A stretch of DNA of 34,956 bases from Folioceros fuciformis (Eukaryota), in NCBI GenBank assembly GCA_049999805.1, contig JBNGIO010003097.1:1-34956 (forward strand). The letters run 5' to 3'. Numbering within the stretch: position 1 is the first letter of the stretch; each line of letters starts with the position of its first letter. Below are positions 1-32,861 of the stretch, one piece after another. Below the pieces are notes generated by a model. That model did no database searches. It worked only from the letters and a program-made list of their open reading frames with translations, and was not told where the DNA came from. The position numbers and the translations under genes are program-made.

Positions 1-65
1 ACATAAAGCACATAGGAATTGTTCCTCTTAGGATGCCGAATGGTCAGTAGAAGAGTCTGCAAGAT

Positions 66-3000
66 GTGTTGCATGTTCCAACCATTACGAAGAACCTGTT
101 GTCTGTTGGACAGATGGCTGAACAAAATCTGCAGGTTCTATTCAATAAAGATGGATGCTTTATTGAAGAATATGACAGAGGCCGCAAACTGATTGCTAAA
201 GGTAGTAGGAATGGACGGATGTTCACTCTGGATGCATCCATTCCAGAGCTAAATGCAGCAATGTTTGCAAATGATGCAGGTGCCATACGTGATGTTGAAA
301 TATGGCATAAGAGGATTGGGCATGGGAACATAGAGAAGCTGAAATCTATGCAACAGAAAAGTGTGGTGGAAGGATTGCCCAAGTTCAAGTATGCTGATCT
401 TGGTCATGTGTGTTCTGCATGTTAATTTGGAAAACAGTCAAGGTTTCTATTTGTGCGATACGTGCAGAACAGCTCGAGACCTTTGCAATTGATACACTCT
501 GATGTATGGGGTCCTTCACAGAATGCATTGTTTGGAGGAGCCCACTACTATGTCTCCTTCATTGATGATTTCAGCAGGTACACATGGCTGTACATACTGA
601 AGCATAAGGATGAAGTGTTCGAGTCTTTCAAGGACTTCAAAAAGCATGCTGAAAATGAATTCAGCTGCTCCATCTCTTGTCTAAGATCAGATGGAGGGGG
701 AGAATATGTCTCAAATGAGTTTGACAGGTATCTTGCAAATCATGGTATACGAAGACAGCTGACTTGCAAATACACACCACAGCAGAATGGTGTTGCAGAG
801 AGGAAGAACAGGGTAGTCATGGAAACAGCAAGGGCAATGCTGAATGAGAAGTGCTTACCTAATGATTATTGGGCAGAAGCAGTGATGACAACAGTGTATG
901 TACTGAATCGAACTCCTACGGCAGGAATTCATGATGCTACACCAATTGAGAGACTATATGGCTATAAGCCGAATATTAGGCACCTGAAAGTGTTTGGGTG
1001 CATTGCATATGTGCATGTGATGAGAAGCGTAGGAAGCTGGATCCTAAAGCAGTGAAGAGTGTTTTTCTGGGGTATGCACGAAATAGGAAGGCATATAAGT
1101 GTTTTGTGCCATCCACACATGAGATCCTGATAAGCAGGGATGTGGTATTTGATGAGTTAGCCTCCCGGTATAGCAACTCAGTTGCACTACCCTATGACAA
1201 ACCCACAGGGGAGAGTACAGTTAAGAGTACTCCAGCAAAGAGTGAGGATGTGACTAATGGTGGATCACCAACGGTGAATCCATGGTATGGAAGACTACGG
1301 AATTGTTTAAATCGAAGACCACTGACCCGGATATGTCAGTGAGGGGGAGAGTAGAAAGCAGCAAAACTGGAAATGATAGATATGAATCCTCAAGTAGTGA
1401 GAGCATTGACAATGAGTTTGGCATTCCATCTGTGGAAACGCCAGGTGCTAAGGAGCAACAATATGCAAGGCAGGTTCAAAATGAACCAAGACCAAGGAGA
1501 TCTGAGAGGGTTAGGAAACCCATTGACAAGTACACCTATACAAGCTACAATGCGCAACATTATGCGTATATGACAAGGGTCACAGCTTGTAAGGAGCCAA
1601 CCAAGTTTGCTGAGGCAGTGACAGATGATAAGTGGTGGCAAGCCATGGATGAAGAATACTCAGCATTAGTTGAGAACGAAACATGGGATTTGGTTCAAGT
1701 GCCTGATGGCAAGGTTCCTATTGGTTCTAAGTGGGTGTACAAGCTGAAGTTAAAGTTTGATGGAACGCTGGAGCGTTACAAGGCCAGGTTGGTTGCAAAG
1801 GGATATGCACAACAGTATGGTCTTGATTATGAGGAAACCTTTAGTCCAGTAGCCAAGATGACAACTGTAAGGACAGTCATAGCATTAGCAGCAGCTAAAG
1901 GATGGAAGTTATGGCAAATGGATGTCAAGAATGCCTTCTTGAATGGTGAGTTGCAGGAGGAAGTGTACGTGGAACAGCCTGAAGGCTATGTTCATCCTAA
2001 GTTTCCAACATACGCCTGCAAACGGAAGAAGGCATTGTATGGACTCAAACAGGCACTTAGAGCATGGAATGCTCGTATCACAAGCTATTTGAAGGAGCGA
2101 GGGTTTGTCATTGGAGACGCAGATCACGGTCTGTTTGTAAAACATACTAAGGTAGGACAAGTGTGTCTTGTCATTTATGTTGACGACCTGATCATAACAG
2201 GAGATGATGCAGATGGTATTGCAGATGTCAAGGCGAATTTGCAAAAAGAGTTCAAGGTGAAGGATCTTGGTGAACTCAGATACTTCTTAGGAATTGAGGT
2301 TGTGTCTACACCTCAAGGAATCTGGCTATTCCAAAAACAATATGCTAAGGATATGTTGCAAAAGTATGGCATGGCAGATTGCAAAGCGATGGATACACCA
2401 TTGGAGCAGAACGTCAAGTTGCAAATGGATGTAGGAGCTGAGCTGGAAAATGTGACTATGTATCGACAGATGGTCGGAAGTTTGATCTACTTGACTATCA
2501 CACGTCCTGATTTAAGTTTTGCAGTGGGACTAATTACTCAATTCATGCAGAACCCAAGGAAACCGCACTTGGATGCAGTTAGAAGAATCATGAGATATGT
2601 GAAAGGAACAACTGAGTTTGGATTACTCTATGAGCATAGGAAGCATCTTGAACTGACAGGATATACAGATGCTGATTGGGCTGGTTGTGCGTATGACAGA
2701 AGATCAACTAGTGGATATGCATTCAGTCTGGGAATTAGTATGATCAGCTGGCAAAGCAAGAAACAACCGACAGTTGATTTGTTAAGCACAGAAGCGGAGT
2801 ATCGAGGAGCTGCAATGGCAGCCTGTGAAACAGCTTGGTTGCAGAAGTTGCTACATGATCTTGGAAATATAGTGAACAGCAAGGTTACAACCTATTGTGA
2901 CAACATGAGTAGCATGAGGTTGGCTATTAATCCTGTGTTTCATGCTCGTTCGAAGCACATAGAAGTACATTATCATTTCATCAGGGAAGCTGTATTATCT

Positions 3001-3123
3001 GAGAAGATAGATCTTCGGCACGTGAAGACCGAAGACCAGGTAGCAGATATCTTTACTAAGTCACTAGGTAGAGATAAGTTCTTACACTTTCGTGAACTAC
3101 TTGGAGTGTTACAAATAGTCTGA
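66..3123 (+). pseudogene. Copia pol polyprotein (integrase-RT-RNase H), disrupted
   Basis: Split across ORFs 66-425, 453-1055, 998-1342 and 1282-3123. In-frame TAA at 423-425 inside the conserved C-x2-C-x-FGK motif; frame changes near 450, 1017 and 1300. Confidence 0.92.
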
Positions 3124-3127
3124 GCTT

Positions 3128-3136
3128 GAGGGGGAG
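3128..3136 (+). promoter_or_regulatory. Polypurine tract of copia element 1
   Basis: GAGGGGGAG just after the pol stop and directly before the LTR-start TGTT. Confidence 0.9.
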
Positions 3137-3397
3137 TGTTAGAAATCAAGCTCTAACTGAATTGTTACTAAGAGCATACAACACTTAGGATAGTGTAGAT
3201 TATCCCATGTTGAACTCGTAGTTATCTATCACCTAAGTGTTATCAGGATATATCAGGATATACTAGGATATTGCACCCTCGAGACTAAGGCTTACCTTAT
3301 CGAGGGTTGCCCCGCCTGAAGGCTATATATGTAGCATCCTGTGCACCATAAGTAAGGAACTGTGGAGTCCTTCTAGGCCTGTGGTGCTATTTCAACA
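3137..3397 (+). repeat. 3' LTR of copia element 1 (261 bp)
   Basis: Starts TGTT after the PPT and ends AACA (terminal inverted repeat); TATA-like CTATATAT near 3323. The 3' end is supported by the partial copy at 4158-4297, which stops at the same point. Confidence 0.85.
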
Positions 3398-4157: not shown

Positions 4158-4297
4158 ATATACTAGGATATTGCACCCTCGAGACTTAGGCTTACCTTAT
4201 CGAGGGTTGCCCCGCTTGAAGGCTATATATGTAGCATCCTGTGCACCATAAGTAAGGAATTGTGGAGTCCTTCTATGCCTGTGGTGCTATTTCAATA
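4158..4297 (+). repeat. 5'-truncated second copy of the element-1 LTR
   Basis: Near-identical to 3258-3397 at an offset of exactly 900 bp; ends TTCAATA versus TTCAACA. Confidence 0.92.
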
Positions 4298-5656
4298 GCG
4301 TAGGCATACCCTTTGGTGTCTAGTACCGAAGAGGTACAACTCTTCAGACACAGGCTATGAAAGCCCACCTCTTGTAATCAATTTTATCAATTAGTAAAGC
4401 ACTATCTTTGATCAAACGCTTCTACAAAGCACTACTAACTAAGCATATAAATATTGGAAAGTAGCTTTGCTTTCTCGACAACACTGCTTTAACATTTTAT
4501 GTGTTTATCTTTTACTAGACTCTAGCAATTCGTGATTCAAAGCCATTGCTGTAGCAACTACGAATGGAAGATGAACAAATCTCAAGGGCATACAACGCAC
4601 CCAAAGCTAATAAAATCTTCTCTCGATGGCCATCATATAGCATTGTCGGTTCTATGCCCTCATGGCTATCCACAGCCTCCTTTGCATGAATTTAGGAAGC
4701 TATCTCACTCTCCTCCCCTTCCATGCCATGTAGGACCCTTCTCAACTATTGTGGCCTCGTAAGAAAATAGTCTATTAGATAATAATTGTGTGTGTACATA
4801 GGCTTCCTATTGAGCAACAAGCTTATCAAGCACCATTATGGGATTATAACAAATTTACTTTGAGGGATACTATAAACATAAGATGTAAACACTTCATCAT
4901 AAACCGTGATGCCAAGACTGTGATGTTTGAAAAAGGAGTTCGGTCAAGAGTACTACTAAATGTCTGTTAAATCCTAGTCATCACCTCAAAGTTATATCTA
5001 GCTACTAGCTCGTGGTAAGTGCTTCATGGCACTGTCGTGATCAATACTTCATGGCATTGATAGATTTGTCATACTGTAAACCGGGCCTAAGCCATTCGTT
5101 TGGTCTAGCCTAATCCGATTCACTGAGGACAACGTAAGCGACTCATCCTGTCCGGATTAGGGCTGTCCATTTGGTCTAGCCTAATGGCAGCATATCAAGC
5201 TTGGTCTCGGCCCCGCAAGTGTAAAACCAATTTTGGGACAAGATCTTAATGAAAAGCCCGATCCCGAGCTTCGGTTCCCATTTCTTTTTTTGGAGGTGGC
5301 CAGTTCCAGAAAAGCCCCAGTCCTCCTTAAATAAAATAAAATGATATAGTTAAAGCTGGGGAGAGTAGCCTCCTTGTGGAATACCGATAGTGACATACAG
5401 TCCTCCATTAGGTTTTTTTTGTTTTAACCATATGTTTTACGTGAATGTTCTAAAGCATCTTCCATGTACATACGGATTTTAGGGCTCCACGTCACATTAC
5501 GAGCTACCATACACTACAATTTTTCTTTTTTTTTCTGTCATTGTCACTTCGATGGATTGATAAGAACCTTGAAGAATCTTCTTTGGAGGAAATCGTGGAA
5601 GCGGGATGAGCACCAAACCCAGCCTCTGTTAGTGGCGCAAGCAAGCCTATGTACAC

Positions 5657-5869
5657 TGTTGATTATTTAATTAATACTTATAGAGCATTGTATATACGTA
5701 GGGCATCGTTCATAACCCTAGATGAATGTTAGTTGGTAGTTGTAACCGTTTTAATGTAGCCAGGACATATTGCTTGTTTCCCTCAACCTTTTTGACAAAT
5801 CTATATATACACATCTTTGCCCTCGGTGTCATGGGTTGCTCAATCTGCCATGAACCTATAAACGGAACA
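5657..5869 (+). repeat. 5' LTR of copia element 2
   Basis: TGTTGATT...GGAACA, 213 bp, matches 12073-12285. Confidence 0.97.
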
Positions 5870-5882
5870 TGGTATCAGAGCC
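5870..5882 (+). promoter_or_regulatory. Primer binding site (tRNA-iMet)
   Basis: TGGTATCAGAGCC directly after the 5' LTR; the canonical plant initiator-Met PBS. Confidence 0.95.
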
Positions 5883-5997
5883 CTGTGGCCTGATCGCCTG
5901 GTTCTGCTATGCATAGGCAGTTTGCTTCTTTGGTGTGTTTGTAAATTGCTTGTTTTTCTGATGGCAATTTGTCTCAAACCCTAGCACACAAGGCAAG

Positions 5998-6471
5998 ATG
6001 CTTCGCAGGCAAATCTGCGAGCATTCTTGGCCAGATCTTGATAAGGGAAAAGGAAGACGCTATTCTGAGCCTGACTTTGAGAAGCTATATTATAAGAAGG
6101 CAACATCTGCTGCCGAAATCGAAGATAGAGCCCAGTTTCTTGGCGCATTTCTTGACTCACAAACATCTGCAGCAAACAGCCGTGCATCAGCATCTGATCC
6201 TGGACAACTATTCAACGTTCAACCAAACTCTCAACGTCAGCAGAAATCCAGAACACGTCCAGAAGTTTTTACAGAACATCAGGCTATTCTTAACTCAATC
6301 CTGAATATCAAGACAACTGTTCTGGAATACACATCTCGAATAGATATTGTTCTAATTAGGCAGGAGCAACTTGAAAGGCTGAGAATTTCAGACCTCATGA
6401 CGATGGCAAAGCAAGAGAGCGACATTAGCAGTCTCAGGGAGTAAATTGCTCGCCTGTCTGCACCAAACTAA
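5998..6471 (+). CDS. Extra ORF upstream of gag (ORF0), unknown function, C-terminal coiled-coil-like segment
   Basis: 148-codon ORF 5998-6444 in the leader, same frame as gag; extends to the TAA at 6469-6471 if the TAA at 6442-6444 is a mutation. Heptad-like C-terminus (...RQEQLERLRISDLMTMAKQESDISSLRE). Confidence 0.55.
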
Positions 6472-6495
6472 TTTGTTCTCGGCTCTGCAGGCATC

Positions 6496-9400
6496 ATGTC
6501 AGGATCAACTAATCTTGACTCAAGATCAGACCGGTTGCAAGATAAGGACCGGCTGACTCCGAGTAATTTCGATGCCTGGAGCTTTAGGGTGCGCTGCATC
6601 CTTGAGGAGAAATTGCTGATGGAAGTGGTTGATGGCAATGTTCCCAAAAAGGTGACTGGTCAGCCATCTAGAACCATGACACCGAACGGGGTAAATCAAG
6701 TACCCTGGACAAGAAAAGATGAGCTTGAGTGGACATACAAAGACAAGAAGGCACGTACCATTCTGGTGGCCTCTGTCTCGCAGGAAATGATTCCTCATAT
6801 AAAGTTGACGCAGTCTTCAAATGAAGTCTGGTCACTGTTATCAGAAACCTATGAGTCGAAGGATATGATAAACTGAAACTGAAGGTTTCAGTTTCAGCCT
6901 TGAGGTAGCTGCAACCCTGCAATTTCAGACACTTCGTATGAGAGAAACTGATTCTGTTGAGAGTCATGTTCCTAAGTTTAGGGCTGCTAGAGCCAAACTA
7001 GCTTCTTGCGGAGTGATCACAGCTGAGTCAAGAGCAGCAGTACAATTATTGCTCTCTCTCCCACCAAGCTTTGAACAGTTCAGTGCTAGCATCCAAACAT
7101 CAGCAGTTGTCACCCTTGCTACAGCAACCACTCCTTCCTCATCTAATCTTACTGTTCAGAAGGTCGTAGCAGCCCTTTTACAGTTTGAAGCAAACAAAAA
7201 GCATATGAAAGGAGGTAGTTCTTCTGCGTCACATAGACAGAGTGACTCTGCCCTCTTCTCTGGGAGGGGTAGAGGACATGGCAGGGGGAGAGGTAGAGGC
7301 AGAGGGGGCTTTGGGAGAGGTAGAGGTCAGTTTCAGCCTTCTACCCCAGCTAGTTCACATCCCAATTCCAATTCCTCGTCTACCACCAAATCAGGAAATT
7401 GTAACTACTGCGGCAAACCTGGTCACTGGATAAAAGATTGTCATAAAAGAATCAGAGATGAAGGCGCTAAAGGCAAACATCCTGCTGAGGCTCATACTGC
7501 TCGAGCCTCCACTCCAAGACTGCTAGTTGCGTGCCTTACCTCATCTAGAAAGGACTGTCAGAGATGGTATCTGGACAGTGGAGCTTCGAACCATATGTGT
7601 TCTAGGAGAAAGTCCTTCATTACGTATGAAGCTTTTCCGACATGTCACCAGACAGCTGTTGTGTTAGGTGACAACTCGACAATTCCAATAAAAGGAACAG
7701 GCACAATACAAGTTACCTTACAGGATGGTAGTTTTCTGCTTTTGGAGAATGCTTTACATGTTCCTGCCATTACCAAGAATCTTGTTAGTACAATGGCACT
7801 TGGGAAAACTAACAAGTATAGAATTACATTCGAAGGAGTGGAGTGTACCATTTATAGGCTGACAGCACCTTCAGTCATCATTGCTCGTGGGAAACCACAG
7901 TTCGATCTGTATCTGCTGGATTTTGTCTCAAACTTACCATCGAATGAGTTTTCTGCACCTGCCACCAGTACGAATGTTATTAAGCAACCTTCAAATGCCT
8001 TTAAGTGGCATTGTAGACTTGGACACCCGAATATCAAAGCTATGAGGCGACTGTTGAAGGAGAAAATGGTAACAGGTTTTGTTGAGGGTGAGTTACCTGA
8101 TCTTGACTTATGTGTTGCCTGTGTCCATGGCAAACAGTTTAAGTCACACTTTGGCAGCGGAAATCCTCGTAAAGCTACAGAATTGCTGGATCTGGTTCAT
8201 ACCGATATTTGTGGACCAATGTCAGTTACCTCATGGGGAGGAGCTCGGTATTTTGTTGTATTTGAAGATGACAGATCCCACTTCACTGTCACTGAGCTCC
8301 TTTGTCACAAGAGTGAGGTGTTCTCCAGCTTTAAGCGTTATCTGGCATATGCAGAACGACAAACAGGCTTTAAGCTTAAGTGTATTCGTTCGGACAATGG
8401 GAAGGAGTACCTTTCCAATGCTTTTCAAGAGTACTGTCAGGAGAAGGGGATTACCAGGCAGTTGACAATCCTGTATCATTCTGACATGAATGGGCGTGCT
8501 GAACGCCGCCACAGGACTATTCAAGATGCTGCAAGGTCACTTCTTTATCAAGGGAGGCTGCCAATACGCTTCTGGGCAGAAGCTGTCCAGGTAGCCACTT
8601 ACTTGCAGAATAGGTCAGCTGTTTCTTCCTTACAGGGTATCACACCTTTTGAAGCCTGGACAGGAAGCAAACCCGATTTGTCACATCTTAGAGTCTTTGG
8701 CAGCACTGCATATTCGCACATTCCTGATCAGCTACGTCATAAGTTTTCTTTTAAGTCTAAAAGACACATCTTCATAGGATACACTCCGGGTATTCATGGC
8801 TACAAATTGTTCGAACCTGTCACAAGGAAGGTGATCCATGCAAGGACTGTTGCGTTTGATGAACGTCTTGTACTGTCCGTTCCTTCCCACTCCTTTAGTG
8901 ACTTTCTCGACGAAGAAACTGTTGAACTTGAGCACTCTGTAGATGCAGGGGAGGAACCACAAGATATCATTAGTTTTCCCGACATAGACCCTTCTGATTT
9001 AGTACAAGATCTTGCACAACTGCCCTTACCGCCTGCTAATCCCAACCCTGGCCAATCCCCGCCAGCCCCTGATGAGAGGTCGTATGGAGATGATCAGCCT
9101 CCCTTGCTCCCACATGATCAGTCAGATGTTGTTGATGATCCTGTCCGCCCTGTCCCGTTACATGATGAGCTGTCTGAGGCCTGGTCTGTGGATGACCCCG
9201 TGGAGTATGTTATTCCTGTCCCTCAGCCAGAACCCCCTAGGCGCTCTACCCGAATTCGGAGACCACCAGAACAGTGGAGAGAGCTTCCTTACAGGAGTGA
9301 AGATTTCAAGAAAGTACCTCGTCCCCATGGTTCTGGCTCTGATGAGGTAGTTGTCGACATGGTGAATCTTTCTCTCAATCCAGGCTATGAGCCTTCTACT

Positions 9401-10993
9401 TATGTTGAGGCCATTAGCGGACAAGACGCTACACACTGGAAAGCGGCTATACAGTCGGAGTATGACTCCCTTATACAAAACAACACGTGGGAGCTCTGTC
9501 CTCCGCCTGTGGGGAGGAAGATAGTTACCTCAAAATGGGTGTTTAAACTCAAATACAAAGCTGATGGAAGCATAGCCAGGTACAAGGCTAGGTTAGTAGC
9601 CCGTGGTTTCTCACAAGTCCCTGGTTTAGACTATCATGACACCTTCTCCCCTGTTGTAAAGGCTCAGTCCCTGAGAGTTCTGTTTGCTATGTCTGCTTTC
9701 TTTTCCCTGCACATCCAGCAAATGGATGTTAAAACGGCATTCCTACATGGGAAATTAGAGGAAGAGATCTTCATGCAGCAGCCTGAGGGATATGAGCTTA
9801 CCGGATGTGAGGATTGGGTGTGTAAGCTCTTGAAGACCTTATATGGTCTCAAACAGAGTACTCGTGCGTGGTACGAGTGCATAGATGAATTTTTGATAGG
9901 TCTAGGCTTCCTTAAAAGCGTTGCTGACACAAACGTGTATCTTCTGCAAGAGAAAGGTGGTTTTGTTATTTTGGCACTCTATGTAGATGATTGTATTTTG
10001 CTGGGAACACACATGGAAGGGATTACCCGTGTTAAAGGTCTGCTGTCGGGTCGTTTCGACATGGTGGATGTTGGAGAGCTTTCCTGCTGCCTTGGAACTC
10101 AGCTTCAGAGAGACACTGTCAGCGGAACATTGTCAGTTCATCAAGAAAAGTACATTTATGATATGTTGTTCAAGTATAAACTTACTGAAGCCAAGACAGC
10201 TCCCAATCCTCTTGAAGCTGGTTGCAAGTTGTCTGTTCAACAGTCTCCACAGACTGCCCAAGAGAAGCATGAGATGGAGGCTGTGCCATACGCACAAGCA
10301 GTGGGGTCACTCATATTTTGCTCAAATCACACTCGACCAGATGTTGCTCTGCCAGTTAGTTTGGTGTCCCAATACCTGAAGGAGCCAGGCAGAGCCCATT
10401 GGTCAGCAACCAAGAGAATTCTGAGGTATCTCAAAGGGACTAGTGGCCATGGAATTCACTACACAAGACGAAGCGATGGAGAGGAAGACCTTACCCTCAT
10501 AGGATACTGTGATGCTGACTGGGCAGCGGACCAAGACACGAGAAGGTCAGTTTCCGCCTATGCCTTCTTGCTTGCAGGTGGAGCAGTTACATGGTCGTCG
10601 AAGAAACAAACAACTGTTTCCTTATCTTCCACCGAAGCAGAATATTCTGCTCTGACTCAAGCTGCGAAGGAAGCAATCTGGCTGCGACGACTCCTAGCGG
10701 ATTTGGGTCAGGAGCAGCAGAGTCCCACAATTATGTATTGTGACAACTAGTCTGCCCTTGCTCTAGCTCGGAATCCAGTTCACCATGCCCGGACTAAGCA
10801 CATAGAAGTGCATCACCACTTTGTGAGGCATGCAGTTGAGACCAAACAGGTGAGGTTAGAGTATATTCCAACTGAGCAGAATGCGGCAGATATACTTACC
10901 AAAGCATTACCTAGGTTGAAGCACCATCAATTCAAAGAGTCTTTAGGAGTCTTAAGTCCACTTCACGTCACAGACAAGTCCAGTCGTAAGTGA
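6496..10993 (+). pseudogene. Copia gag-pol polyprotein with two lesions
   Basis: Gag N-terminus (LTPSNFDAWSFRVRCILEEK), RG-rich tract, CCHC knuckle CNYCGKPGHWIKDC, protease WYLDSGASNHM, HHCC (WHCRLGH...CVAC), integrase (HTDICGP, RSDNGKEY, NGRAERR), RT YVDD, RNase H CDADWA. Disrupted by a frameshifting insert at ~6874-6901 and a TAG at 10748-10750 (YCDN*SAL); the frame continues to 10993. Confidence 0.95.
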
Positions 10994-11270
10994 GGAAACT
11001 ACTGTGAGGCTGATAAGTAGGTATCAAGGTCAGAAACTTATGCTACTTTCTAAGTCCTACCTACTAGTGCCAGCCTATGATGATCCCTTGTCTTCAGAAC
11101 TGGAAGGTGACAGGAATTTAGATCTGCCTCTCCTGTCTGCCTGTTGCAGGCCAACAAAATTGGGATCAAAGTCTGGCCCTTCGTCACTGGTCTCTTCGTC
11201 TGTTTCATCAGTCTAGTTGACACCAGCCTCCTCAGCCATCCTCTCCCTGGATACTGTTGCCATAATCGAA

Positions 11271-11828
11271 TCATTTGGTCAGAACTTTACTGCAGCAGGT
11301 CACACCATGACAATAGTGGGAGTAGCATAGACAAGCTGCGAATTTTGTCATACCGTAGAAGGAGATGAAGTTCCCGTCGTGGCCTCCCCATCTCCACCAA
11401 TTCTGCCGAAACATCATGATTTTAGTTGTTGGGCAGATGTACACCTCCGGCGTTCCAGGGTCGTCAACACCGTCACCGTCAGTGACTACTCTTCTTCCCT
11501 GGTACAGATGCCCTGTCGGAAGCTTGTACTCCCGAGCCTGGAAGTCCTCTGGCAGCACAATCTGGTCAAGACCTTCAGTTAGCTTCTCAGTTCTAGTTTT
11601 CCCATAGTTGAAGGAGCGAGGAGCAGAATTAGAGGTCGAAGCACCAGCTCTCCTTAGGTCAGAGACTTCCTTGGCCAGCTTCTCTTCCCTCGCCTTCGCT
11701 TCCCGTAGTAGTTTCTGCCAGTATTTGGCTCCACCTCTGTCAGCCACTCTCCAAGCAGGTTCCCCATCAGGATGGACCGGACACGGCGGCAGATCTGCAG
11801 CAGGACATGAGCAGATTTTGTGCCTCAT
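11271..11828 (-). CDS. Antisense ORF between pol and the 3' LTR, with a Cys/His motif and coiled coil
   Basis: 185 aa from ATG; the frame stays stop-free for 72 more codons upstream (to 12044). Contains CSC-x7-CPVH, KLLREAKAREEKLAKEVSDLRR and a Cys/His-rich C-terminus. Confidence 0.55.
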   Translation of the reverse strand: MRHKICSCPAADLPPCPVHPDGEPAWRVADRGGAKYWQKLLREAKAREEKLAKEVSDLRRAGASTSNSAPRSFNYGKTRTEKLTEGLDQIVLPEDFQAREYKLPTGHLYQGRRVVTDGDGVDDPGTPEVYICPTTKIMMFRQNWWRWGGHDGNFISFYGMTKFAACLCYSHYCHGVTCCSKVLTK

Positions 11829-12063
11829 GGCTCGAATCCCTAGTGTTTCTCTTGTTGCTGGGGCGGCTGCAGAGAGGCGCTGTGAAGGCAGTGGTCCGTT
11901 CTCAGAGGCGCACTGGAATCCGCCGAGGCTTGCATCGTCAGAAGCTGACAGGTCAATCGGAGCTGCGTGAGCTGGTGTATTCGACGCGAGAGAGAAGACT
12001 GTGCCTGGGCGTACATCTACCTTGTTGTACCCGGTGGTTAATTGTTATATCCGTATATCCAAT

Positions 12064-12072
12064 GAGAGGGGG
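12064..12072 (+). promoter_or_regulatory. Polypurine tract of copia element 2
   Basis: GAGAGGGGG abutting the TG of the 3' LTR. Confidence 0.93.
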
Positions 12073-12285
12073 TGTTGATTATTTAATTAATACCTATAGA
12101 GCATTGTATATACCTAGGGCACCGTTCATAATCCTAGATGAATGTTAGTTGGTAGTTGTAATCGTTTTAATGTAGCCAGGACATATTGCTTGTTTCCCTC
12201 AACCTTTTTGACATATCTATATATACACATCTTTGCCCTTGGTGTCATGGGTTGCTCAATCTGCCATGAACCTATGAACGGAACA
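12073..12285 (+). repeat. 3' LTR of copia element 2
   Basis: 213 bp, TGTTGATT...GGAACA, followed by TSD TACAC. Confidence 0.97.
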
Positions 12286-12408
12286 TACACATTCGTGGAA
12301 TGAGGCCCCAACTCTAATGTTGAAGGGAATTGCGAATCCTAAGCAAGCCTGTGTGGACATTCGTGAAATGAGGCCCCAACTCTGAGATTGAAGGGAATTG
12401 CAAATCCT
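12286..12408. repeat. 68-bp tandem repeat interrupted by copia element 2
   Basis: ATTCGTGGAATGAGGCCCCAACTCT...GAAGGGAATTGCGAATCCT recurs at 12291 and 12359. The start of the first unit (AAGCAAGCCTATGTACAC) lies left of the 5' LTR at 5639-5656. Confidence 0.88.
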
Positions 12409-13000: not shown

Positions 13001-13774
13001 ATGAAGGGTTATCTGCGTACGAAAGCTGAAAGTGTGAGTGACCTTGCCACTGAGATGGAGTATAGGTTGGAGGTGGAAAACTACCTGTCTCAGATGGAGA
13101 AGTGGCCGATGTCCGGGCGCCACATCCTGGCACACTTCGACGATGACACGGTAGTAGTGTACCAGGCATACAAGCCGGAGATTGGGCGATTTGCCCTGAA
13201 TCACGGTTTCCTGGGAGGGGATCACTTCAGCCTGACGAGGATGTCATGGGTGAAGACCAACTTCATGTGGATGATGCACCGCAGCGGCTGGGGGAGCAAG
13301 CCCGGGCAGGAGATGGTGCTGGCCATTCGGCTGCGTCGCTCCGCCTTCGACTGCATTCTGGCGCAGGCGGTGCCCTCCATGTTCCACCCGGCCGCGGGTT
13401 TCCGGGACCGAGAGGACTGGCGGGCGGCCGCTTCCTCCTCCCAGGTGCTGCTGCAGTGGGATCCCGACCATGATCCCATGGGCGCCAAGCTTCCCCGCCG
13501 CGCAATCCAGCTCGGACTGCGCGGTCAGCTTCTCCGCAGCTTTGCGTCCTCATGGATCGTCCACATCCAAGATGTCTCTGCCCTAGCTCGAGAACAGGCA
13601 CCCTTGGCCGCGGTCAGGGAGATGTGGTCCTCGCTCGTCACGCCTCGGGAGCAGGTGTATCCATTGCCTGATGTAGCCGTCTCCCTCTCCCTCGGCATCG
13701 CATCAGAGCAGGAGACTTCACCTGATCTACTGGAATCGGTCAGATCTCACTCCCAATCCAGTTCTCCGTCTTGA
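13001..13774 (+). CDS. DUF4291-family protein, intronless (alternative start 13055)
   Basis: Motifs GRHILAHFDDDTVVVYQAY, FSLTRMSWVKTNFMWMMHRSGWGSKPGQE and LQWDPDHDP...RRAIQLGLRG are recognisable as DUF4291; single uninterrupted ORF. Confidence 0.88.
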   Translation: MKGYLRTKAESVSDLATEMEYRLEVENYLSQMEKWPMSGRHILAHFDDDTVVVYQAYKPEIGRFALNHGFLGGDHFSLTRMSWVKTNFMWMMHRSGWGSKPGQEMVLAIRLRRSAFDCILAQAVPSMFHPAAGFRDREDWRAAASSSQVLLQWDPDHDPMGAKLPRRAIQLGLRGQLLRSFASSWIVHIQDVSALAREQAPLAAVREMWSSLVTPREQVYPLPDVAVSLSLGIASEQETSPDLLESVRSHSQSSSPS

Positions 13775-14114
13775 ACATCAGAATTTGCGTGTCCAACGAG
13801 TGCGAATCCTTCGTGACGATCCCCTTCTCTGGACTTCAGTGTCGGACTCTTTTCCTCCACATCAACAGAGGAGATGCAGATAGCAGGCATGCCTGAAACA
13901 CAAAAGACACATGCTGCAGTCTATTCCGCAGTGCCAATGAGCTGGAGTGAAGGTGTAAACCCCGAACCCTGGACTTCAGTGCCAAGAACTCCAACAGAAC
14001 GGATGCAGCCCGCCGCCATGCTCTAAAGGACGAGGCTCGTGACATGATTATTGCACAGACTAGACGGAGGCACAATGACAAATCCGCATGTAAACGAAAG
14101 CTCAGTTACAGAAT

Positions 14115-14232
14115 CGCGCTGGCGAGGAGGAACGAGCCGTAGGAATCACTTTGGCACTTAAGAGTGGGTGCTCACGCGCCGGCGAGGAGCAACGGGCCGA
14201 CGGAATCACTTTGGCACTTAAGAGTGGGTGCT
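14115..14232. repeat. 60-bp tandem duplication upstream of FKBP20-2
   Basis: Two copies sharing GGAATCACTTTGGCACTTAAGAGTGGGTGCT, period 60. Confidence 0.92.
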
Positions 14233-14294
14233 GAGAGCTATTCATTTTATCTGGGATCACAGCAAAAGCTAGTCCGTTCATTTCGTTCGAGAGA

Positions 14295-15065
14295 ATGGGC
14301 GTTCCTGTGCTGCTGCAGCAGCAGCTGGTTCTGCTGCAACCAAGGAATGTGAGGAATGCAGTGCCAGGGCGGGCTGAATGGAAGCGACACGAGGAGAGGC
14401 TCGCAGAGGCGAGCCGGGGAGGGAGGAGGATGGCACTGCTGCGACTAGGGCTGGGGCTGGGACTAGGCTTTGGGACGGGGATGCGGATGGCAGAGGCTGC
14501 AGGAGCAGAGGAGGAGCAGCAGCGGCGTCGGCCGAGGCCGGTGAGCAGCCCGTTCGACGAGGATCGACTACTCGAGCAAAACAGGAGGATGCAGAGGCTG
14601 AACAATGCGCCGGAGGGGTTTCCGGGTTTCATAAGAGAAGGCTTCGAGGTGAAAGTTGTGGTCACCTCGGAGTACGTGAGCACAGAGTCGGGGCTAATCT
14701 ACCTGGACATCCGGCCGGGGCAGGGGGATCCGCCGCAGAAGGGCCAGCAGGTGCTCTTCCACTACATAGGCTACAACGAGTCCGGCCGCAAGGTGGATAG
14801 CAGCTATCAGCAAGGCACGCCTGCGCGCACTCGTCTTGGGACCAACGGGATGATTCCAGGATTCGAAGAAGGCATCAGCAGCATGCGTGCAGGAGGCAAG
14901 CGCAGAATAGTGGTACCCCCAGAGCTCGGCCCGCCAGTGGGGCCTTCCACCTTCTTCAGCGCCAAGCAGTTCGAGGTGTTCGATGTTGAGCTCCTCAGTG
15001 TGCAGGACTGCACGCGGAGAACGGTCCTTGGCTTCTACTCTGACGTCGTCTGCTCGGATAAATGA
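14295..15065 (+). CDS. FKBP20-2: Thylakoid-lumen FKBP-type peptidyl-prolyl isomerase FKBP20-2, intronless
   Basis: Transit peptide plus twin-arginine signal (GRRMALL...AEA), SPFDEDRLLEQNRRMQ, FHYIGYNESGRKVDSSY, GPPVGPSTFFSAKQFEVFDVEL, and the C-terminal Cys pair CTRRTVLGFYSDVVC typical of FKBP20-2. Confidence 0.93.
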   Translation: MGVPVLLQQQLVLLQPRNVRNAVPGRAEWKRHEERLAEASRGGRRMALLRLGLGLGLGFGTGMRMAEAAGAEEEQQRRRPRPVSSPFDEDRLLEQNRRMQRLNNAPEGFPGFIREGFEVKVVVTSEYVSTESGLIYLDIRPGQGDPPQKGQQVLFHYIGYNESGRKVDSSYQQGTPARTRLGTNGMIPGFEEGISSMRAGGKRRIVVPPELGPPVGPSTFFSAKQFEVFDVELLSVQDCTRRTVLGFYSDVVCSDK

Positions 15066-15119
15066 GTACTTCATCATTTGCCAAGTGATTCAGTGCGATC
15101 TACCGGGCTGCACCTCTGC

Positions 15120-18100
15120 TCATGACAAGAATTCACGGACATACATGGGCCGCTTGATGGCACTTGTGAAGCCCTGCCACATCATCACGACACGGATGGT
15201 TGACCCCTGGAACACACATGTTTCCTCTGTTTTGGTGAGCAATGCGGGCACAACCTTACCTCTTGGTACTTGAAAACTATAGGCCGCGAGTCTCTCTGAG
15301 CCGTAGAAAGTTTGACAACGTTGGTCTTAGTAGGATCCTTGGGCTGAATCCTCCACCTGCGAACATGCATTCTCGGATGAAGATTTCGCTTACTCGCTTC
15401 GTGCACAATCCCACCTAAAATGTCAGTGCAGCTCACCTGTCAAATACACTCGTAGCATCCTGTGCAGGTCTCTTCCTTCCGTTCGTCTGTGAGGCTGGAG
15501 GATTTTTCACCTCTTGTTTTTTGGCTTTCTCCCTTGCTGATGTAGTATCTTGAGCTACTGGAGTCCCAAAAGAAGAGGCTTCTGGCCCTTGCTTGAGTAT
15601 GTCTGGCCTCTCTTGTTCTTCTGATGAAGAAACTCCGGCTCGTTGTCGGATTCTTTCCATGTTGGCCTGCGGCATGCTTCCATTTTCAGGGACAGTACAC
15701 CTGGACTGTATGACCAATACAACGAGTCTGTAAATTCTCGATTTTTTCTTTGCCGCTTGTCTAAACAAGCGATCCTACCTCATGGCTCAGCATTTGCCGC
15801 AGGGAATCTGAGAGTGGGCAGTATTGTGGTAAGTAGCCCTGCCAAACAGACAATACCAGTCCTTACGCTTCTGTCGATGAAAACAAAGCTGCTTCCAAGC
15901 GAAAGCTTAAATTATGGTCCAACCTGGAACGTGATCAGGGAGTTGATCGGGGGATGCATGTGGAACGCCACCCTCTCTGATCCTTTCCCGGAATTTGATT
16001 GTTTGTAAGTGATGCCATATCTAAGCATGGACCCAACGAGCCCTTTCACCTCGTCCTTCTCATCTTTTGTGAACATATGGTAGGACACCTGAGAAACCAA
16101 CCATGGGCCACAGCAGGGTCAGCCACAACCAAAAGAATCTGGAGGAAAACTCACAGGCAGCATGTGACCGACAGCCGACGGCCACATATGAAGGTTCAGA
16201 ATATAACTGTCCGTAGCCTCCTTGGAGACAAAGCAGCAAGGAGTGGAGATATCAGATCTTCGGTGAGAGTTCGAATGCTGTAAGTACGTCTTGCTGCAAC
16301 AGACATGCACAGAAGCCAATCCTGAAGCATCTCCCTTTTCAAGCCGACGCCACGCTTGAAGCTACATTACATGCGGAGCAGTTAGACAAACGACCCAGTG
16401 CAATTATCTTCTGAACGTCTGAAAGACGAAAGTTAAGAAGAGGAGACTGCCGAAGACTTCTTACCTTTGATACAACTTAGGCCAGACTATATGAGGCATC
16501 TCTGGCTGAGCAATCAGTCTCCGGACGGCCAGAAAATTTGACGGTTGGTACGCTACAAGAAAACCGCCAGCACAAGATGCTGAAAATAAAAAAAAAACTA
16601 GTCTTCGTGCACTGCAGTTGACGGGGTGAAGCCGGAACTGTGTGATCTCACCATGAAGGAAGAAGTGTTGCCGAGAAACAGCCCTGTGTTCCACAACATC
16701 AGAAGTCCCGAGGATATTTAAGCACTCAACCTGTAACCACCGCAGTCACACCAACGTGAAGAACAGGACAACTTTATGATACTGGTCTGATGATCAGGTC
16801 ATACAAACGAGCGTTGCCACCCGTATCATACCAGCTTCCTCATCGAGGTGTCATGAGACCGCATCTGCAGTAAGTTCTCAAATACACCCTCGAACCCTAG
16901 ATCGAAGTCACCACTGCACAGGTGAAACCACATGGTTCATCAAATCAGCCAAGTCTCGAAGCCACTAAATTTCACGGAATGACCGAGCAAAACAGACGAC
17001 TTACTGATTAGAGAAAATGTCATAAAGGCGTTGGAACTCCACCTTCTCTGTTCCACCACCACTCTTAGTGTTTGATGGACCCCAACTCCCTGCCCGAGAT
17101 CGTTTGGTACCGCTTTGAAACACCTGCAACCGTTACGAACCACCTGTTAGATGAAGTATCAACAAGACCACTACGAAGGTAGCAGAATCCTGTCTCACCC
17201 TAAAACCTGAGTGGATGGCAGAAGCAGACCTCTCTCCACATTTTGAAAATGTTATGGGTCATGTTTTTCCTCCCTGTCAACTGCGACGCCACATCAACCT
17301 TTGGAACCAACACATGGACTAAGTCAGACATGTCATGGCTCTCTCGACGAGTTCAAAAGCATCAAGATACTATGCAGATTTCAGTACCATGTTTAAAGGT
17401 TGCCCTTTTTGATGTAAGAACTGAAGGGTGTGCAGACATGAGCGAATGTCACACTCTGTCTCACACAAGAGCTACATTGTTTCAGGATGAAGGGACCTGA
17501 CACCAACACCAAAACATAAAAACATGTACTTCACAATGCTGGATGAGCAATTTGCCTGTGTGTTCGGCCAGAAGAGTGAGAGCGCGAGGATTTGTAGCGT
17601 ATCCCTCCTCGCTGCAAATCTGTTTAAGTCTGTCGGAATGCAACTAACATCAATTATCACTTCACTCCTTTTAGTGGTTGAGACTTGTTGGCTTGGGAGG
17701 GTCGACAACGAGGCTTACCTTGTCACAACTCGAGAAAGACCGGGCTGAATAAATCTTTCGATCCTACAATTGCACACAATGCAGTTGTGGTTATGGATCA
17801 TCAGAATAAAAGACAGCTGCCAAAGGACTAGACAGATACCCAAATACTGTGTCCAGTCGTCACCTAGCAACTTGGCGAATGTTTCGTAAAGCAGGAGCGT
17901 AGAGGTCGTTACAAATACATATAACCTGAAGAGGATTGCAAAGCGAGCCACGGCAACTGTGAGAACGGAGCATGGACCATGATGTCATTCTGCTGTGCTG
18001 ACAACGACGAGCTTGTGGTGCATTTTTTGACCAAGATCATGAGCACATATGTTGTATCCAAGTCATAAGATGCCGAGCAAGCCACAAGCCTATCTGGCTT

Positions 18101-20845: not shown

Positions 20846-22248
20846 TCATTGCGAAACACCGAGCCACTTCCCGAAGTTCTCAAACTCTGTGTAATCACTA
20901 TCTGAGACCATGGTCTTGTACCAGGCTTCACCCGCCTTCTTCACGTCCTCTGGGGCAGCTCCCTCGACCTGCCAAACACAAACACAATCACACACAACAA
21001 AGCAGACATGGTCACGCACACAGACGAACACAATGGGAGTTGGTTAAGTAACACCGCTGGGTACGACAAGATGCGGTTGGTTAAGTAACACAGTTGGTTA
21101 AGACAAGATACAAGCAGAGGGGGGAGAAGAAAAGCTCTCACCTGGTTAGGCTGCTTCCTCTTGCTGTCCAGCTTCTGTGCCCTAGCCTTGGTCTGCTGGG
21201 CCTGGGCCAAAAGCTCCATCCTCCTAACAGTCTTGGCGTACGGGTTGAGCTTCAGGAGGGCTCCCAGATTCTTGAGCGGGTTCTTTTTCAGGGCTCTCGT
21301 CTTCACCTCCGTCTTCATGGGCCGGACCACGGACTGGATCTCATCAGAGTTGATGAGCCGAGCTAGGTCAGAGTTAGCCATGAGGGGGCGAGGTAGGGTG
21401 TAGTTCTTCTTCACAGCCGACTTCCTGTCTACCGTCCCAAAGATGGAGTCCAGCTTCTCGAAAGCAGACTTCGTCCAAACCACAAACCGGCCAAGATGGC
21501 CACCAGGAGCCAGCTGCAGCAGGTTGAGCCGGTCCACAGACACGATCTCCACACCAGGGATGTTCCTAAACGCCTTGACCAGCTTCGCGCCCTCGGTGCC
21601 GTACACGATCAGCGGGCCCCTGCGGGACACATATCTCCTGTTCCTCATCTTCCCCTTCCCAGCCCGGATGTTGCGGGTGGCCTTAACTTTTTCCACATCA
21701 TCGTACGCTCCCACCTTCTTCAGCAGATTCACAGCCGCCGAGGTCTTCTCGATGCCCTCCACGGCATCGCTGAGCACGAGCGGCACCTCCGGCACCTTCT
21801 CGATGCGATGGCCCCGAGCTAGCACTAATGCTGGAACTGCGGACGCAGCCAGGGCAGACACAACCGCGTACCTCTTTTGATTGATGTTCACCTTGCGGTG
21901 CCAGCGCCTCCAAACCTTGGTGGGAGCAAACATGTGCCCTCCTCGGCACATGTTGCCGAAGGCTCCCTGCCCGGCTCTGTGAGTTCCACCTCCCTGAACA
22001 CGAGGAATTCTGGACACAGCCCTGCCTGTCCCCCATGACTCCGCCGACGTCTGATGCCCCGCCTTGCTACTCACAGCGTAAGGCTGCCTCTTGTTCTTCG
22101 CCAAATTGGTGTGCACAAACTGCACGATGTCAGACCTGATCGGCGCCTTGAACACCTCCGGCAGCGGCGTCTGGTTGCCTCGCCCGTCTGCTGCGCCAAC
22201 ATCGGATTCCGCCAACTGGACTGTAACTAGCGGGCGGGCAGCCGCCAT
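20846..22248 (-). CDS. RPL4: 60S ribosomal protein L4 (uL4), copy A; exons 22248-21142 and 20968-20846, 409 aa
   Basis: [23 protein letters not shown] and [10 protein letters not shown] motifs; plant C-terminus [25 protein letters not shown]; 173-bp GT-AG intron 21141-20969. Confidence 0.97.
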
Positions 22249-23087
22249 GGTTTTCGCTGGCACACAGCACAACTCTTCCGGAGTTTAGTTTATGCCCACT
22301 GTTTATCTCTCCTTATGTAAAGATACCTCCGCTCCTGGAAGACCTACACTACGCAGCTAGAATTCCTTTCCAAACTTTTTAGCACTATTTTCATGTTTTC
22401 CAACACGGTAGCTGTTTCTGTTTTGTTTTAAGGCCTCATCGATTTACATCATCGATTGGGCTGGAATTCTTTCCTTTTCTGTTCCAATGCTTTGCTTTGC
22501 TTTTCAGTAAGCTTATCACAAAAACGACGTGACTGAAAATCCATCGACAATGGACAATTTGGGAGGACACACCATCAGACTGGAGAGCCATGTGGCCTGA
22601 CAACAGAGAGGGAAGTCCGTTTGGTAACAGAGGCCCCGATGTGCCGACGACAGGGATGCACATCTCTATATGATGTGGAGGGTGATTTGTTCTGATAGCA
22701 TGGAGACACAATCAGCCTGACAAGAGAGAGGAACAACTGGCTCACAACTGGAGGGCTTCGCTTGGCTCTTTGCATACAGTATCTATGTCGTCCAGGGCAT
22801 GCACCTGACGGAATGTTGTCGGAAGTCTGTCTTTATGGGAAGGATGAGCCAGCACCATGGGATTCCGGAGCTTCGGGTCAGGTTTCGTGCCAGTTCGTCG
22901 GGGAAGAGGAGTACACATGGCTGGCTGGCGGTGAGGAAGTACGTATGGCCTGGAAGGAGCCAGCATGAGCATGGAGTATGAGGCGTGACCTACTTACTGC
23001 TTGGTTCTCGTCCGGAGGTGGTGACGGGTTGCACGGCTGGATGATGAGGCTCTTGGTGCCGCTGATGCTTGGCGGCAGGGCGGACGT

Positions 23088-31362: not shown

Positions 31363-31512
31363 CCTCGAAATGAGCAGGAGTTAGACCTAACCAGGGGTCG
31401 ACGGAAAGTAAAGCGTGCCCTAACCATACCCTAACCCGGTCGTCCCTCCTTTTTTTTCAGTCCCCCCAGCATTCAGTCCCTCTTTCCGCAGGGTCTCCCT
31501 TCATCTCAGCGG

Positions 31513-31520
31513 AAACCCTA
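31513..31520 (+). promoter_or_regulatory. Telo-box upstream of RPL4 copy B
   Basis: AAACCCTA 3 nt before the ATG; further CCCTAA motifs at 31418-31437. Typical of plant ribosomal-protein genes. Confidence 0.75.
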
Positions 31521-31523
31521 GCG

Positions 31524-32861
31524 ATGGCGGCACGTCCTCTGGTCACGGTGCAGGTGTTGGAAGGCGATGGCGCTGCAGGAGATGGTGGCGTGGTGCAGGC
31601 TCCGTTGCCCGAGGTATTCAAGGCGCCAATCCGGTCCGATATTGTACAGTTTGTGCACACCAATCTGGCGAAGAACAAGAGACAGCCCTACGCTGTGAGC
31701 AGCAAGGCTGGGCACCAGACGTCCGCGGAGTCATGGGGTACTGGCAGAGCTGTGTCCAGGATTCCTCGTGTTCCTGGTGGCGGGACTCACCGAGCTGGGC
31801 AGGGAGCTTTCGGCAACATGTGTCGTGGGGGTCGCATGTTTGCTCCCACTAAGATCTGGAGGCGCTGGCACCGCAAGGTGAACACCAACCAGAAGAGGTA
31901 TGCTATTGTGTCGGCTCTCGCGGCTTCCGCGGTGCCCGCTCTGGTGCTGGCTCGGGGCCACCGCATCGAGAAGGTGCCGGAGGTGCCGCTGGTGTTAAGC
32001 GATTCTGTTGAGGGCATCGAGAAGACCTCGGCCGCCGTGAAGTTGCTGAAGAGGATCGGCGCGTACGAGGATGTGGAGAAGGTGAAGGCCAGTCACAACA
32101 TTCGGGCAGGGAAGGGAAAGATGAGGAACCGAAGGTACGTGTCTCGCAGGGGCCCTCTGATTGTTTACGGCACTGAAGGCGCCAAGTTGGCAAAAGCCTT
32201 CAGGAACATCCCCGGTGTGGAAATTTCTTCGGTGGATCGCCTCAACCTGCTGCAGCTGGCACCTGGTGGCCACCTCGGGCGGTTCGTGGTGTGGACTAAG
32301 TCCGCTTTCGAGAAGTTGGACCACATTTTTGGAACAGTGGACAAGAAGTCGGAGGTGAAGAAGAACTACACTCTCCCTCGCTCCATCATGGCCAACCCTG
32401 ACCTGGCTCGTCTCATCAACTCCGACGAGATTCAGTCCGTGGTCCGGCCCATCAAAACGGAGGTCAAGAGGAGAGCCCTGAAGAAGAACCCGCTGAAGAA
32501 TCTGGGTGCCCTCCTGAAGCTCAACCCGTTCGCCAAGACTGCCAGGAGAATGGAGTTGCTGGCCCAGTCCCAGAGGGTCAAGGCTAGGGCAGAGAAGCTG
32601 AGCAGCAAGAGGAAGCAGCCCAACCAGGTGAAATCATTGTTTCCTCTTCCCTCCACTCGCCCCAATCAGCTCCGTTCCTTCAATGCTATTGTCGGTTGTC
32701 CCCTGCATGACACCCAATCGTTGTGCCCCCTGTATCAGGCCGAGGGAGCTACTCCAGAGAAGGTGAAGCAGGCCGGTGAGGCCTGGTACAAGACCATGAT
32801 TTCTGATAGTGATTACACAGAATTTGAGAACTTCGGCAAGTGGCTCGGTGTCTCACAATGA
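31524..32861 (+). CDS. RPL4: 60S ribosomal protein L4 (uL4), copy B; exons 31524-32627 and 32739-32861, 408 aa
   Basis: Same motifs as copy A; 111-bp GT-AG intron 32628-32738 at the same position (KQPNQ|). Confidence 0.97.

Follow-up and report, generated by a model that had tools for sequence, protein, structure and literature searches.

A predicted two-exon antisense accessory gene in a clade of Ty1/copia retrotransposons of Folioceros fuciformis

Here we report an antisense gene carried by Ty1/copia retrotransposons of Folioceros fuciformis. Based on sequence conservation, we predict that it is a real accessory gene, present family-wide in one copia clade, composed of two exons and encoding a new protein family. 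It was identified in a window of 34,956 nucleotides (the whole stretch of DNA analyzed), for which a preliminary description had proposed an element-encoded antisense accessory gene between pol and the polypurine tract (PPT). Its constant position behind pol and the purifying selection acting on it bear out this proposal. The frame almost certainly codes for a protein and has been inherited together with pol.

The antisense gene family and its host element

A search of the host genome assembly (87 Mb) yielded 74 candidates and 73 matches, which do not equal copy numbers: the window copy, two near-identical copies, and the rest, 25-63% identical. The region is thus not a host fragment present in one copy only, one of the outcomes that the preliminary description had named as fatal to its proposal. 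All 40 loci that include the end of pol carry the frame in antisense orientation directly behind it, between pol and the 3' LTR, which is the position of the aORF-3R genes of gypsy elements; the other 10 of the 50 loci have no pol in view. Among the 30 closest RNase H loci, 23 retain either exon 1 (17 loci) or exon 2 alone (6 loci), and the remaining seven comprise three at a contig edge, three cut within RNase H and one that is unexplained. By this count and by the pN/pS values given below, the gene is present in most family copies and conserved as a protein, as is asked of an aORF-3R gene.

Identity by codon position in the antisense core was 0.70/0.78/0.41 among 17 subfamily representatives. 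The antisense frame contained 4 stops in 748 codons, compared with 15-59 stops in the other five frames; the mirrored sense frame had 33 stops in 731 codons. For the last 44 core codons of the 17 representatives, pS was 0.79 and pN 0.26 (pN/pS 0.32). Divided by divergence class, pN/pS was 0.35, 0.20 and 0.30 between subfamilies, as against 0.73 (0.35-1.70) among copies more than 92% identical. Selection therefore acts during the mobile phase of the lineages, and decay follows insertion.

The antisense gene marks one RNase H clade. A single branch (support 95/95) of the 49-row RNase H tree unites 27 carriers with one element that has kept a remnant of exon 2; outside it fall 19 more distant elements, none of them with a profile match, and the other copia element of the window. 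One carrier, the long-branched L036, lies outside the carrier clade. In a Mantel test, core distances were correlated with those of RNase H (r 0.29, 93/5000, 24 rows), and more strongly with three long-branch rows removed (r 0.44, 0/5000). Core divergence exceeds RNase H divergence (0.41 vs 0.26).

The window element extends from 5657 to 12285 with the target-site duplication (TSD) TACAC. It has TG..CA LTRs, a 5-bp TSD, a primer-binding site (PBS) as well as a PPT, as expected of an LTR element, and its Gag-protease-integrase-RT-RNase H order with RVT_2 identifies it as Ty1/copia (Table 1). Its nearest RT-RNase H relative in the databases is 52% identical. The reading frame of its gag-pol is disrupted twice, by a change of frame near 6873 and by a stop codon at 10748-10750.

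The antisense frame of the window comprises 257 open codons, from 12044 to the stop at 11273-11271; when 10991-12070 was shuffled 2000 times, a frame of at least 230 codons appeared twice. It contains, as first described, a CxC-x7-CxxH motif (CSCP...CPVH, codons 78-91), a heptad run (codons 107-132) and a WWRWGG segment (codons 216-221). The absence of a transmembrane helix was likewise confirmed, the top 19-residue hydropathy mean being 0.31 in the window frame and no higher than 1.38 for the 13 members of the alignment that exceed 100 aa. The frame does not start just inside the PPT, as had been stated, but 17 bases short of this purine tract, which ends at 12072. A point absent from the preliminary description is that, within its family, the window copy is a defective one. 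It lacks the family's start ATG, its first in-frame ATG occurs only at codon 73 (11828), and exon 2 has a premature stop at 11215-11213 that is unique to this copy, both close sister copies being open there. The window copy could yield just a short product from Met73. The ATG-less 5' end is common to the window copy and its two close sisters, one of which is also frame-changed there. This common end implies that their ancestor either transposed lacking the N-terminal motif or relied on a different start.

Table 1. Positions of features in the window and of antisense ORFs at more distant copia loci
Feature	Position	Strand	Remarks
5' LTR	5657..5869	+	213 bp, TG...CA; preceded by target-site duplication TACAC; 8 differences from 3' LTR
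Primer-binding site	5870..5881	+	TGGTATCAGAGC; presumably Met-tRNA type
Second extra ORF	6001..6444	+	Between PBS and gag; 147 aa in window copy, C-terminal heptads
Acceptor-like YAG	6478..6501	+	Directly 5' of GCAYMATG and gag ATG (6499)
gag-pol	6499..10993	+	Gag, Zn knuckle, protease, integrase, RT, RNase H
Exon 2 of antisense gene (predicted)	11075..11253	-	Phase 1; xSRERMAEEAGV..., acidic, Ser-rich, FDPNF motif
Predicted GT-AG intron	11254..11353	-	100 nt; contains the "Cys/His tail" of the preliminary description and the ORF stop
Nucleotide island in intron	11305..11320	.	CCAC-N7-GTGG-like (4-bp hairpin or dyad); strand unassigned
Exon 1, conserved core	11354..11570	-	LPxG..K..RLxxDGxGxxDPxTPxxYxC..T.I.M.R..WxRWGG..GNFISFY
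Exon 1, long helix	11640..11735	-	Heptad pattern (predicted coiled coil)
Exon 1, CxC-x7-CxxH motif	11772..11828	-	Includes first in-frame ATG of window copy (11828)
N-terminal PIDLSxSDD motif	11934..11960	-	Relatives have an ATG 3-8 codons ahead; window copy has none
Polypurine tract	12061..12072	+	
3' LTR	12073..12285	+	Followed by TACAC; contains self-complementary TATATATA run; candidate antisense promoter
Antisense M-x-T-R-[SR]-G ORFs	L139:1152-1496; L140:1169-1558; L144:1429-1794; L145:1345-1698; L147:1475-1819		

Other sequences were noted in and around the window. A second, older copia element (44-3300 and 4158-4299) has its PPT immediately after pol, with no extra 3' gene; another LTR-like copy lies 900 bases on, with a 193-nt repeat pair between. 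Two 52-nt direct repeats spaced 68 bases apart (12289-12408) follow immediately 3' of the 3' LTR. Elsewhere in the assembly, tandem elements were seen at G000:C6308 (L087, L104), L028 and L134, where the 5' ORF or gag of the next element begins directly after the 3' end.

Among host genes, the window contains a DUF4291 gene on the plus strand (13001-13774, E 6.5e-61), covered by contigs of a single RNA run with a GT-AG joint near 13738-13838. The DUF4291 family is mostly bacterial, and this may possibly be a transferred gene. An FKBP20-2 gene (14203-15359, plus strand) seems intronless, and one RNA-run contig spans it without gaps. Its best named relatives are found in liverworts (65-76% identity), with ferns, mosses and seed plants close. 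Two paralogues in inverted orientation, 83% alike (20846-22284 and 31374-32861), are presumably ribosomal protein L4-like. Two further host genes were found via PF08265, a single-exon Ies6-like gene (L077:1153-1653) and a YL1/Vps72-like gene (L078).

Predicted exon-intron structure

Protein conservation stops sharply at GNFISFY, and one base on there is a GT in 43 of 45 loci, mostly as GTAAG. The segment that follows is 79-110 nt long and not a multiple of 3 in 39 of 43 loci; it ends in AG in 30 of 43 loci and lacks AG in 13, of which 10 have CAA. Base counts in 22 representatives were G21 T22 A19 A20 G20 T12 at the donor and C/T 20, A 21 and G 17 at the acceptor, with T or C at position -5 in 16. 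A YTRAY occurs within the last 50 intron bases in 18 of the 22, a figure that stands without a computed background. A GTRAGT donor, a YAG acceptor, a length independent of frame and exons in one phase are what a GT-AG intron would have. Copies mutate as if CG- and CHG-methylated, and between close copies the mismatch from CAG to CAA is 16%, compared with 6% at CHH sites. These values fit the view that CHG decay would explain much of the loss of the acceptor AG, a loss that is still somewhat high.

Beyond the predicted acceptor, exon 2 is conserved in one phase, with S-x-x-R-M-x-E-E-x-G, an acidic run, FD[PS]N[FY] and a Ser/Asp end. Across 18 representatives (of the 22, the 4 that have indels next to the acceptor were omitted), its frame contains 8 stops in 720 codons, compared with 31 and 89 for the other frames; codon-position identity is 0.58/0.57/0.38. 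The gene very probably consists of two exons, with a predicted antisense transcript from the 3' end of the element that would be spliced at a phase-1 intron. In the single RNA run, contigs lay over host genes beside the element, with one GT-AG joint, and none lay over the element.

Because conservation ends at the GT donor and the acidic exon 2 follows the intron, the Cys/His-rich tail that the preliminary description had assigned to the protein is, on the predicted model, intron read-through. The acidic tract, which it had suggested to be a frameshifted C terminus, does appear to be part of the gene; no frameshift is involved, since the tract would be joined as exon 2 via the conserved acceptor. 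Since it does not read as an intron on the strand of the genomic RNA, an intron in the antisense gene can persist through reverse transcription, as follows from the copia life cycle. That the gene has one also speaks against its origin as a captured processed mRNA.

The best conserved segment of the intron is the CCAC-N7-GTGG island, which lies behind pol on the genomic RNA. The strict pattern is present in 27 of 43 loci and falls in all three frames across copies. It could form a stem of 4 pairs, and both sides of one pair are changed in 3 of 21 sequences. A pattern search found no significant second site of this type within the window, and Rfam gave no match for the island.

Other extra genes of copia elements

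The 5' extra ORF of the element has 54 matches in the genome, with an identity by codon position of 0.70/0.77/0.46 (11 representatives), a pattern that points to selection on a coding frame, and no Pfam family above the cut-off. Both extra genes are present on 12 contigs, about 5 kb apart and in opposite orientation. In 18 of the 19 loci that reach the site, a YAG stands before GCAYMATG and the gag ATG. This suggests that a spliced RNA may serve for the translation of gag-pol; common descent by itself could also account for the conserved YAG. No splice donor matching this acceptor-like site was located in our search, and a candidate immediately 5' of the ATG of the 5' ORF was dropped, its context not being GT.

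Among 20 more distant copia loci, five have antisense ORFs of 115-130 aa that start with M-x-T-R-[SR]-G. One family of these ORFs has 30 matches, runs opposite to RNase H at 10 of 12 loci (L149-L160), shows codon-position identity of 0.61/0.72/0.41 (6 representatives) and is unrelated to the two-exon antisense gene. The M-x-x-R spacing of these sister-family ORFs is the one seen in two anchors to the nucleosome acidic patch, those of LANA (M6, R9) and IE1 (M483, R486), as given in the accessible part of PMC9040877. Other types of antisense ORF were seen behind pol at L133, L137, L141, L143 and L146, some with a hydrophobic N terminus followed by a basic run and some with heptads.

The predicted protein and its possible role

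Splicing of the antisense transcript would yield a protein of about 260-320 aa in copies that retain the start ATG. From the N terminus, its parts follow in the order of a SIM-like motif, a variable linker, CxC..CxxH, the heptad helix, the core and the acidic tail; the product would thus combine a predicted C3H zinc knuckle and coiled coil with a novel core domain. The N-terminal motif (P-I-x-L-S-acidic) resembles what we take to be a SUMO-interacting motif (SIM). It is found in 17 of 38 loci, compared with 12% in shuffles, and 3-8 codons ahead of it 12 of 17 loci have ATG and 4 have ATA or ACG. The arrangement CxC-x(3-9)-CxxH, which in our judgment resembles a zinc knuckle (C3H), is intact in 20 of 38 loci as against 0.3% in shuffles; its ligands are thus conserved among copies, the check that had been proposed for the motif. 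Invariant residues of the core are P, T, W, GG, NF, S and Y, including W..WGG, and Asp and Glu make up 22-33% of exon 2 (12 open exons). Two AlphaFold2 models had a pLDDT of 53, the heptad helix being the sole confident part; these were made from exon 1 alone, and their core may lack its last helix.

No match was obtained in a fold comparison of the two models. No homologue was found in a word search of 5.8 billion proteins, in a profile search of 1.84 billion representatives (where one 1049-aa protein was matched by nine short stretches), or in Pfam, PHROGs, and metagenome and viral contigs; the ESM Atlas, searched twice, gave nothing at 0.9. PF04195, PF10536 and DUF3716 were absent among the Pfam matches (18 members at E<=10; 24 members at E<=1). 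These blanks are weak evidence of absence, since the collections searched hold few spliced plant transposon genes. The gene would represent a new protein family, absent from the databases searched.

Descriptions of antisense ORFs in this position come mostly from gypsy lineages (PMC7264820, PMC11963269). Those of plant Ty3/gypsy elements (aORF-3R or eORF-3'R) include gene23 of maize Grande and those of rice RIRE2, Retand and Ogre; an antisense transcript of its own was shown for gene23, and the Grande antisense protein is nuclear (PMC7264820). The Retand ORF is TRP28 (PF04195), and that of Ogre is a plant mobile domain (PMD, PF10536). Like aORF-3R genes, as described in PMC7264820 and in the accessible part of PMC11963269, the gene studied here is antisense between pol and the 3' LTR, family-wide and without a membrane helix, and a coiled coil is frequent among them. 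By contrast, its host element is Ty1/copia, it matches neither TRP28 nor PMD, and, compared with the gypsy set, it has a conserved intron within a pol-LTR region of only about 1.1 kb. It resembles the gypsy aORF-3R genes in position and probably in kind, outside their protein families.

In the accessible portion of the REXdb survey, which used a threshold of 250 open codons, eORF-3'R was recorded in 86% of Retand, 60% of Ogre and 1% of SIRE, and in none of Bryco, Lyco, Gymco, Ale, Ivana and Tork; Bianca and Ikeros were left out, and single copia cases are possible (PMC6317226). SIRE offers a parallel in that its env-like eORF-3'F is likewise an extra gene between pol and the PPT of a copia element, but the SIRE gene is in sense orientation (PMC6317226, accessible portion), whereas ours is antisense. 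Env-like ORFs often have membrane helices (PMC7264820), and the gene studied here has neither these nor the sense orientation. No account of a plant copia element with a spliced antisense gene turned up in the literature searched, a coverage that left most subscription papers outside.

As a whole, our best reading is that the frame forms the first exon of an accessory gene with two exons, arranged tail-to-tail with pol, whose product acts on chromatin in the nucleus; we put this forward tentatively, at slightly less than an even chance. Given the gene model, itself very probable, we favor, at somewhat less than an even chance, the view that the protein is nuclear, dimerizes through its coiled coil and acts on chromatin at its own copies to raise or protect transcription, as a transactivator or anti-silencing factor. 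This view draws on indirect grounds, namely the modules of the protein, the signs of CG and CHG methylation, the nuclear Grande protein, the predicted VANC21 dimer and the M-x-T-R-S-G start of the sister families. VANC proteins of VANDAL/MuDR are likewise lineage-specific accessory proteins of plant transposons, and VANC21 is a predicted coiled-coil dimer (PMC13547354, accessible part). Unlike our gene, they belong to a DNA transposon and are MAIN/PMD-related; the present gene has no PMD match, and an anti-silencing role for it is hypothetical.

The same spliced gene could instead act as a brake, in that its protein or the antisense RNA dampens sense transcription or assembly, which we consider unlikely. 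HBZ of HTLV-1 and APH-2 of HTLV-2 are spliced coiled-coil proteins, and HBZ, expressed from the 3' LTR, inhibits Tax. The topology of our gene, its coiled coil and its acidic region would suit such a role, and the clade is diverse with few copies per subfamily in this assembly, which the fragmentation of the assembly may also explain. In the accessible part of PMC11963269, HBZ and APH-2 are antisense 3'-end genes for nuclear regulators, and antisense RNA may form dsRNA (PMC7264820). The retroviral proteins are bZIP, however, and the present protein has no bZIP or other match in Pfam and no sequence match to them, so that the likeness is one of analogy alone.

A function at the RNA level is also rather improbable in our view. 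The protein would either bind the CCAC-N7-GTGG hairpin in genomic RNA, affecting export, packaging or splicing choice, or suppress silencing through its WG, since WG/GW hooks bind Argonaute. The conservation of the island and the changes on both sides of one pair speak for such binding, the conserved acceptor ahead of gag suggests regulated splicing, and W..WGG is invariant. The stem of just 4 pairs, however, has almost no covariation term, Rfam is silent on it, and a lone WG, placed within a conserved domain, more likely has a structural part to play.

Still another proposal, which we regard as quite improbable, casts the protein as a tether that would direct integration or bring the pre-integration complex to chromatin, perhaps through mimicry of Ies6, a subunit of INO80. 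The sole PDB sequence matches of the core profile were to yeast Ies6 (E ~0.009), across 41 ungapped columns at residues 37-77, and the M-x-x-R spacing described above recalls acidic-patch anchors. Against this, the host's own Ies6 scores nothing against the profile (hhalign probability 0.4%), PF08265 (YL1_C) does not match, a larger profile misses Ies6, and M-x-T-R-S-G occurs in the sister families but not in this one. We have rejected the Ies6 likeness and treat it as chance.

The unspliced model of the preliminary description, with a Cys/His tail and a frameshifted acidic C terminus, is very improbable: the window copy and its two close sisters do read 27 codons past the donor, but across 44 loci with a stop this read-through varies from 4 to 76 codons, the residues "HYCCG" derive from a nucleotide motif present in all three frames, and the length of the spacer is independent of frame. 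That the region is not a gene at all, but non-coding DNA under conservation or a by-product of some feature on the sense strand, finds some favor in the lack of database homologues and of RNA over the element and is next to impossible unless the alignment is wrong, because the codon-position pattern and the avoidance of stops are unique to the antisense frame.

To our knowledge, copia elements other than SIRE have been treated as consisting of gag-pol only. The two-exon accessory gene predicted here provides a copia clade with a family-wide antisense gene, an exact and testable exon model and a second extra ORF. The threshold of 250 codons, as stated in the accessible portion of the REXdb report, would overlook most such genes that are spliced or short (PMC6317226). 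A review of 2020 described the function of the antisense ORFs of plant LTR elements as unknown and called for a search for antisense and spliced transcripts (PMC7264820). Comparable antisense genes may be common in seed-free plants, and their small modular proteins, with predicted zinc-binding, coiled-coil and acidic parts, are directly assayable. A wider possibility, which for now we consider doubtful, is that the copia elements of this seed-free plant are "complex" retroelements that express up to three genes through splicing and two-way transcription, namely the 5' ORF, gag-pol behind its acceptor and the spliced antisense gene. In neighboring clades, small chromatin proteins of unrelated families would then occupy the antisense position, some of them anchored to the acidic patch, and the gene studied here would encode the first trans-acting anti-silencing or transactivating copia protein, with a new domain that perhaps reads CCAC-N7-GTGG.
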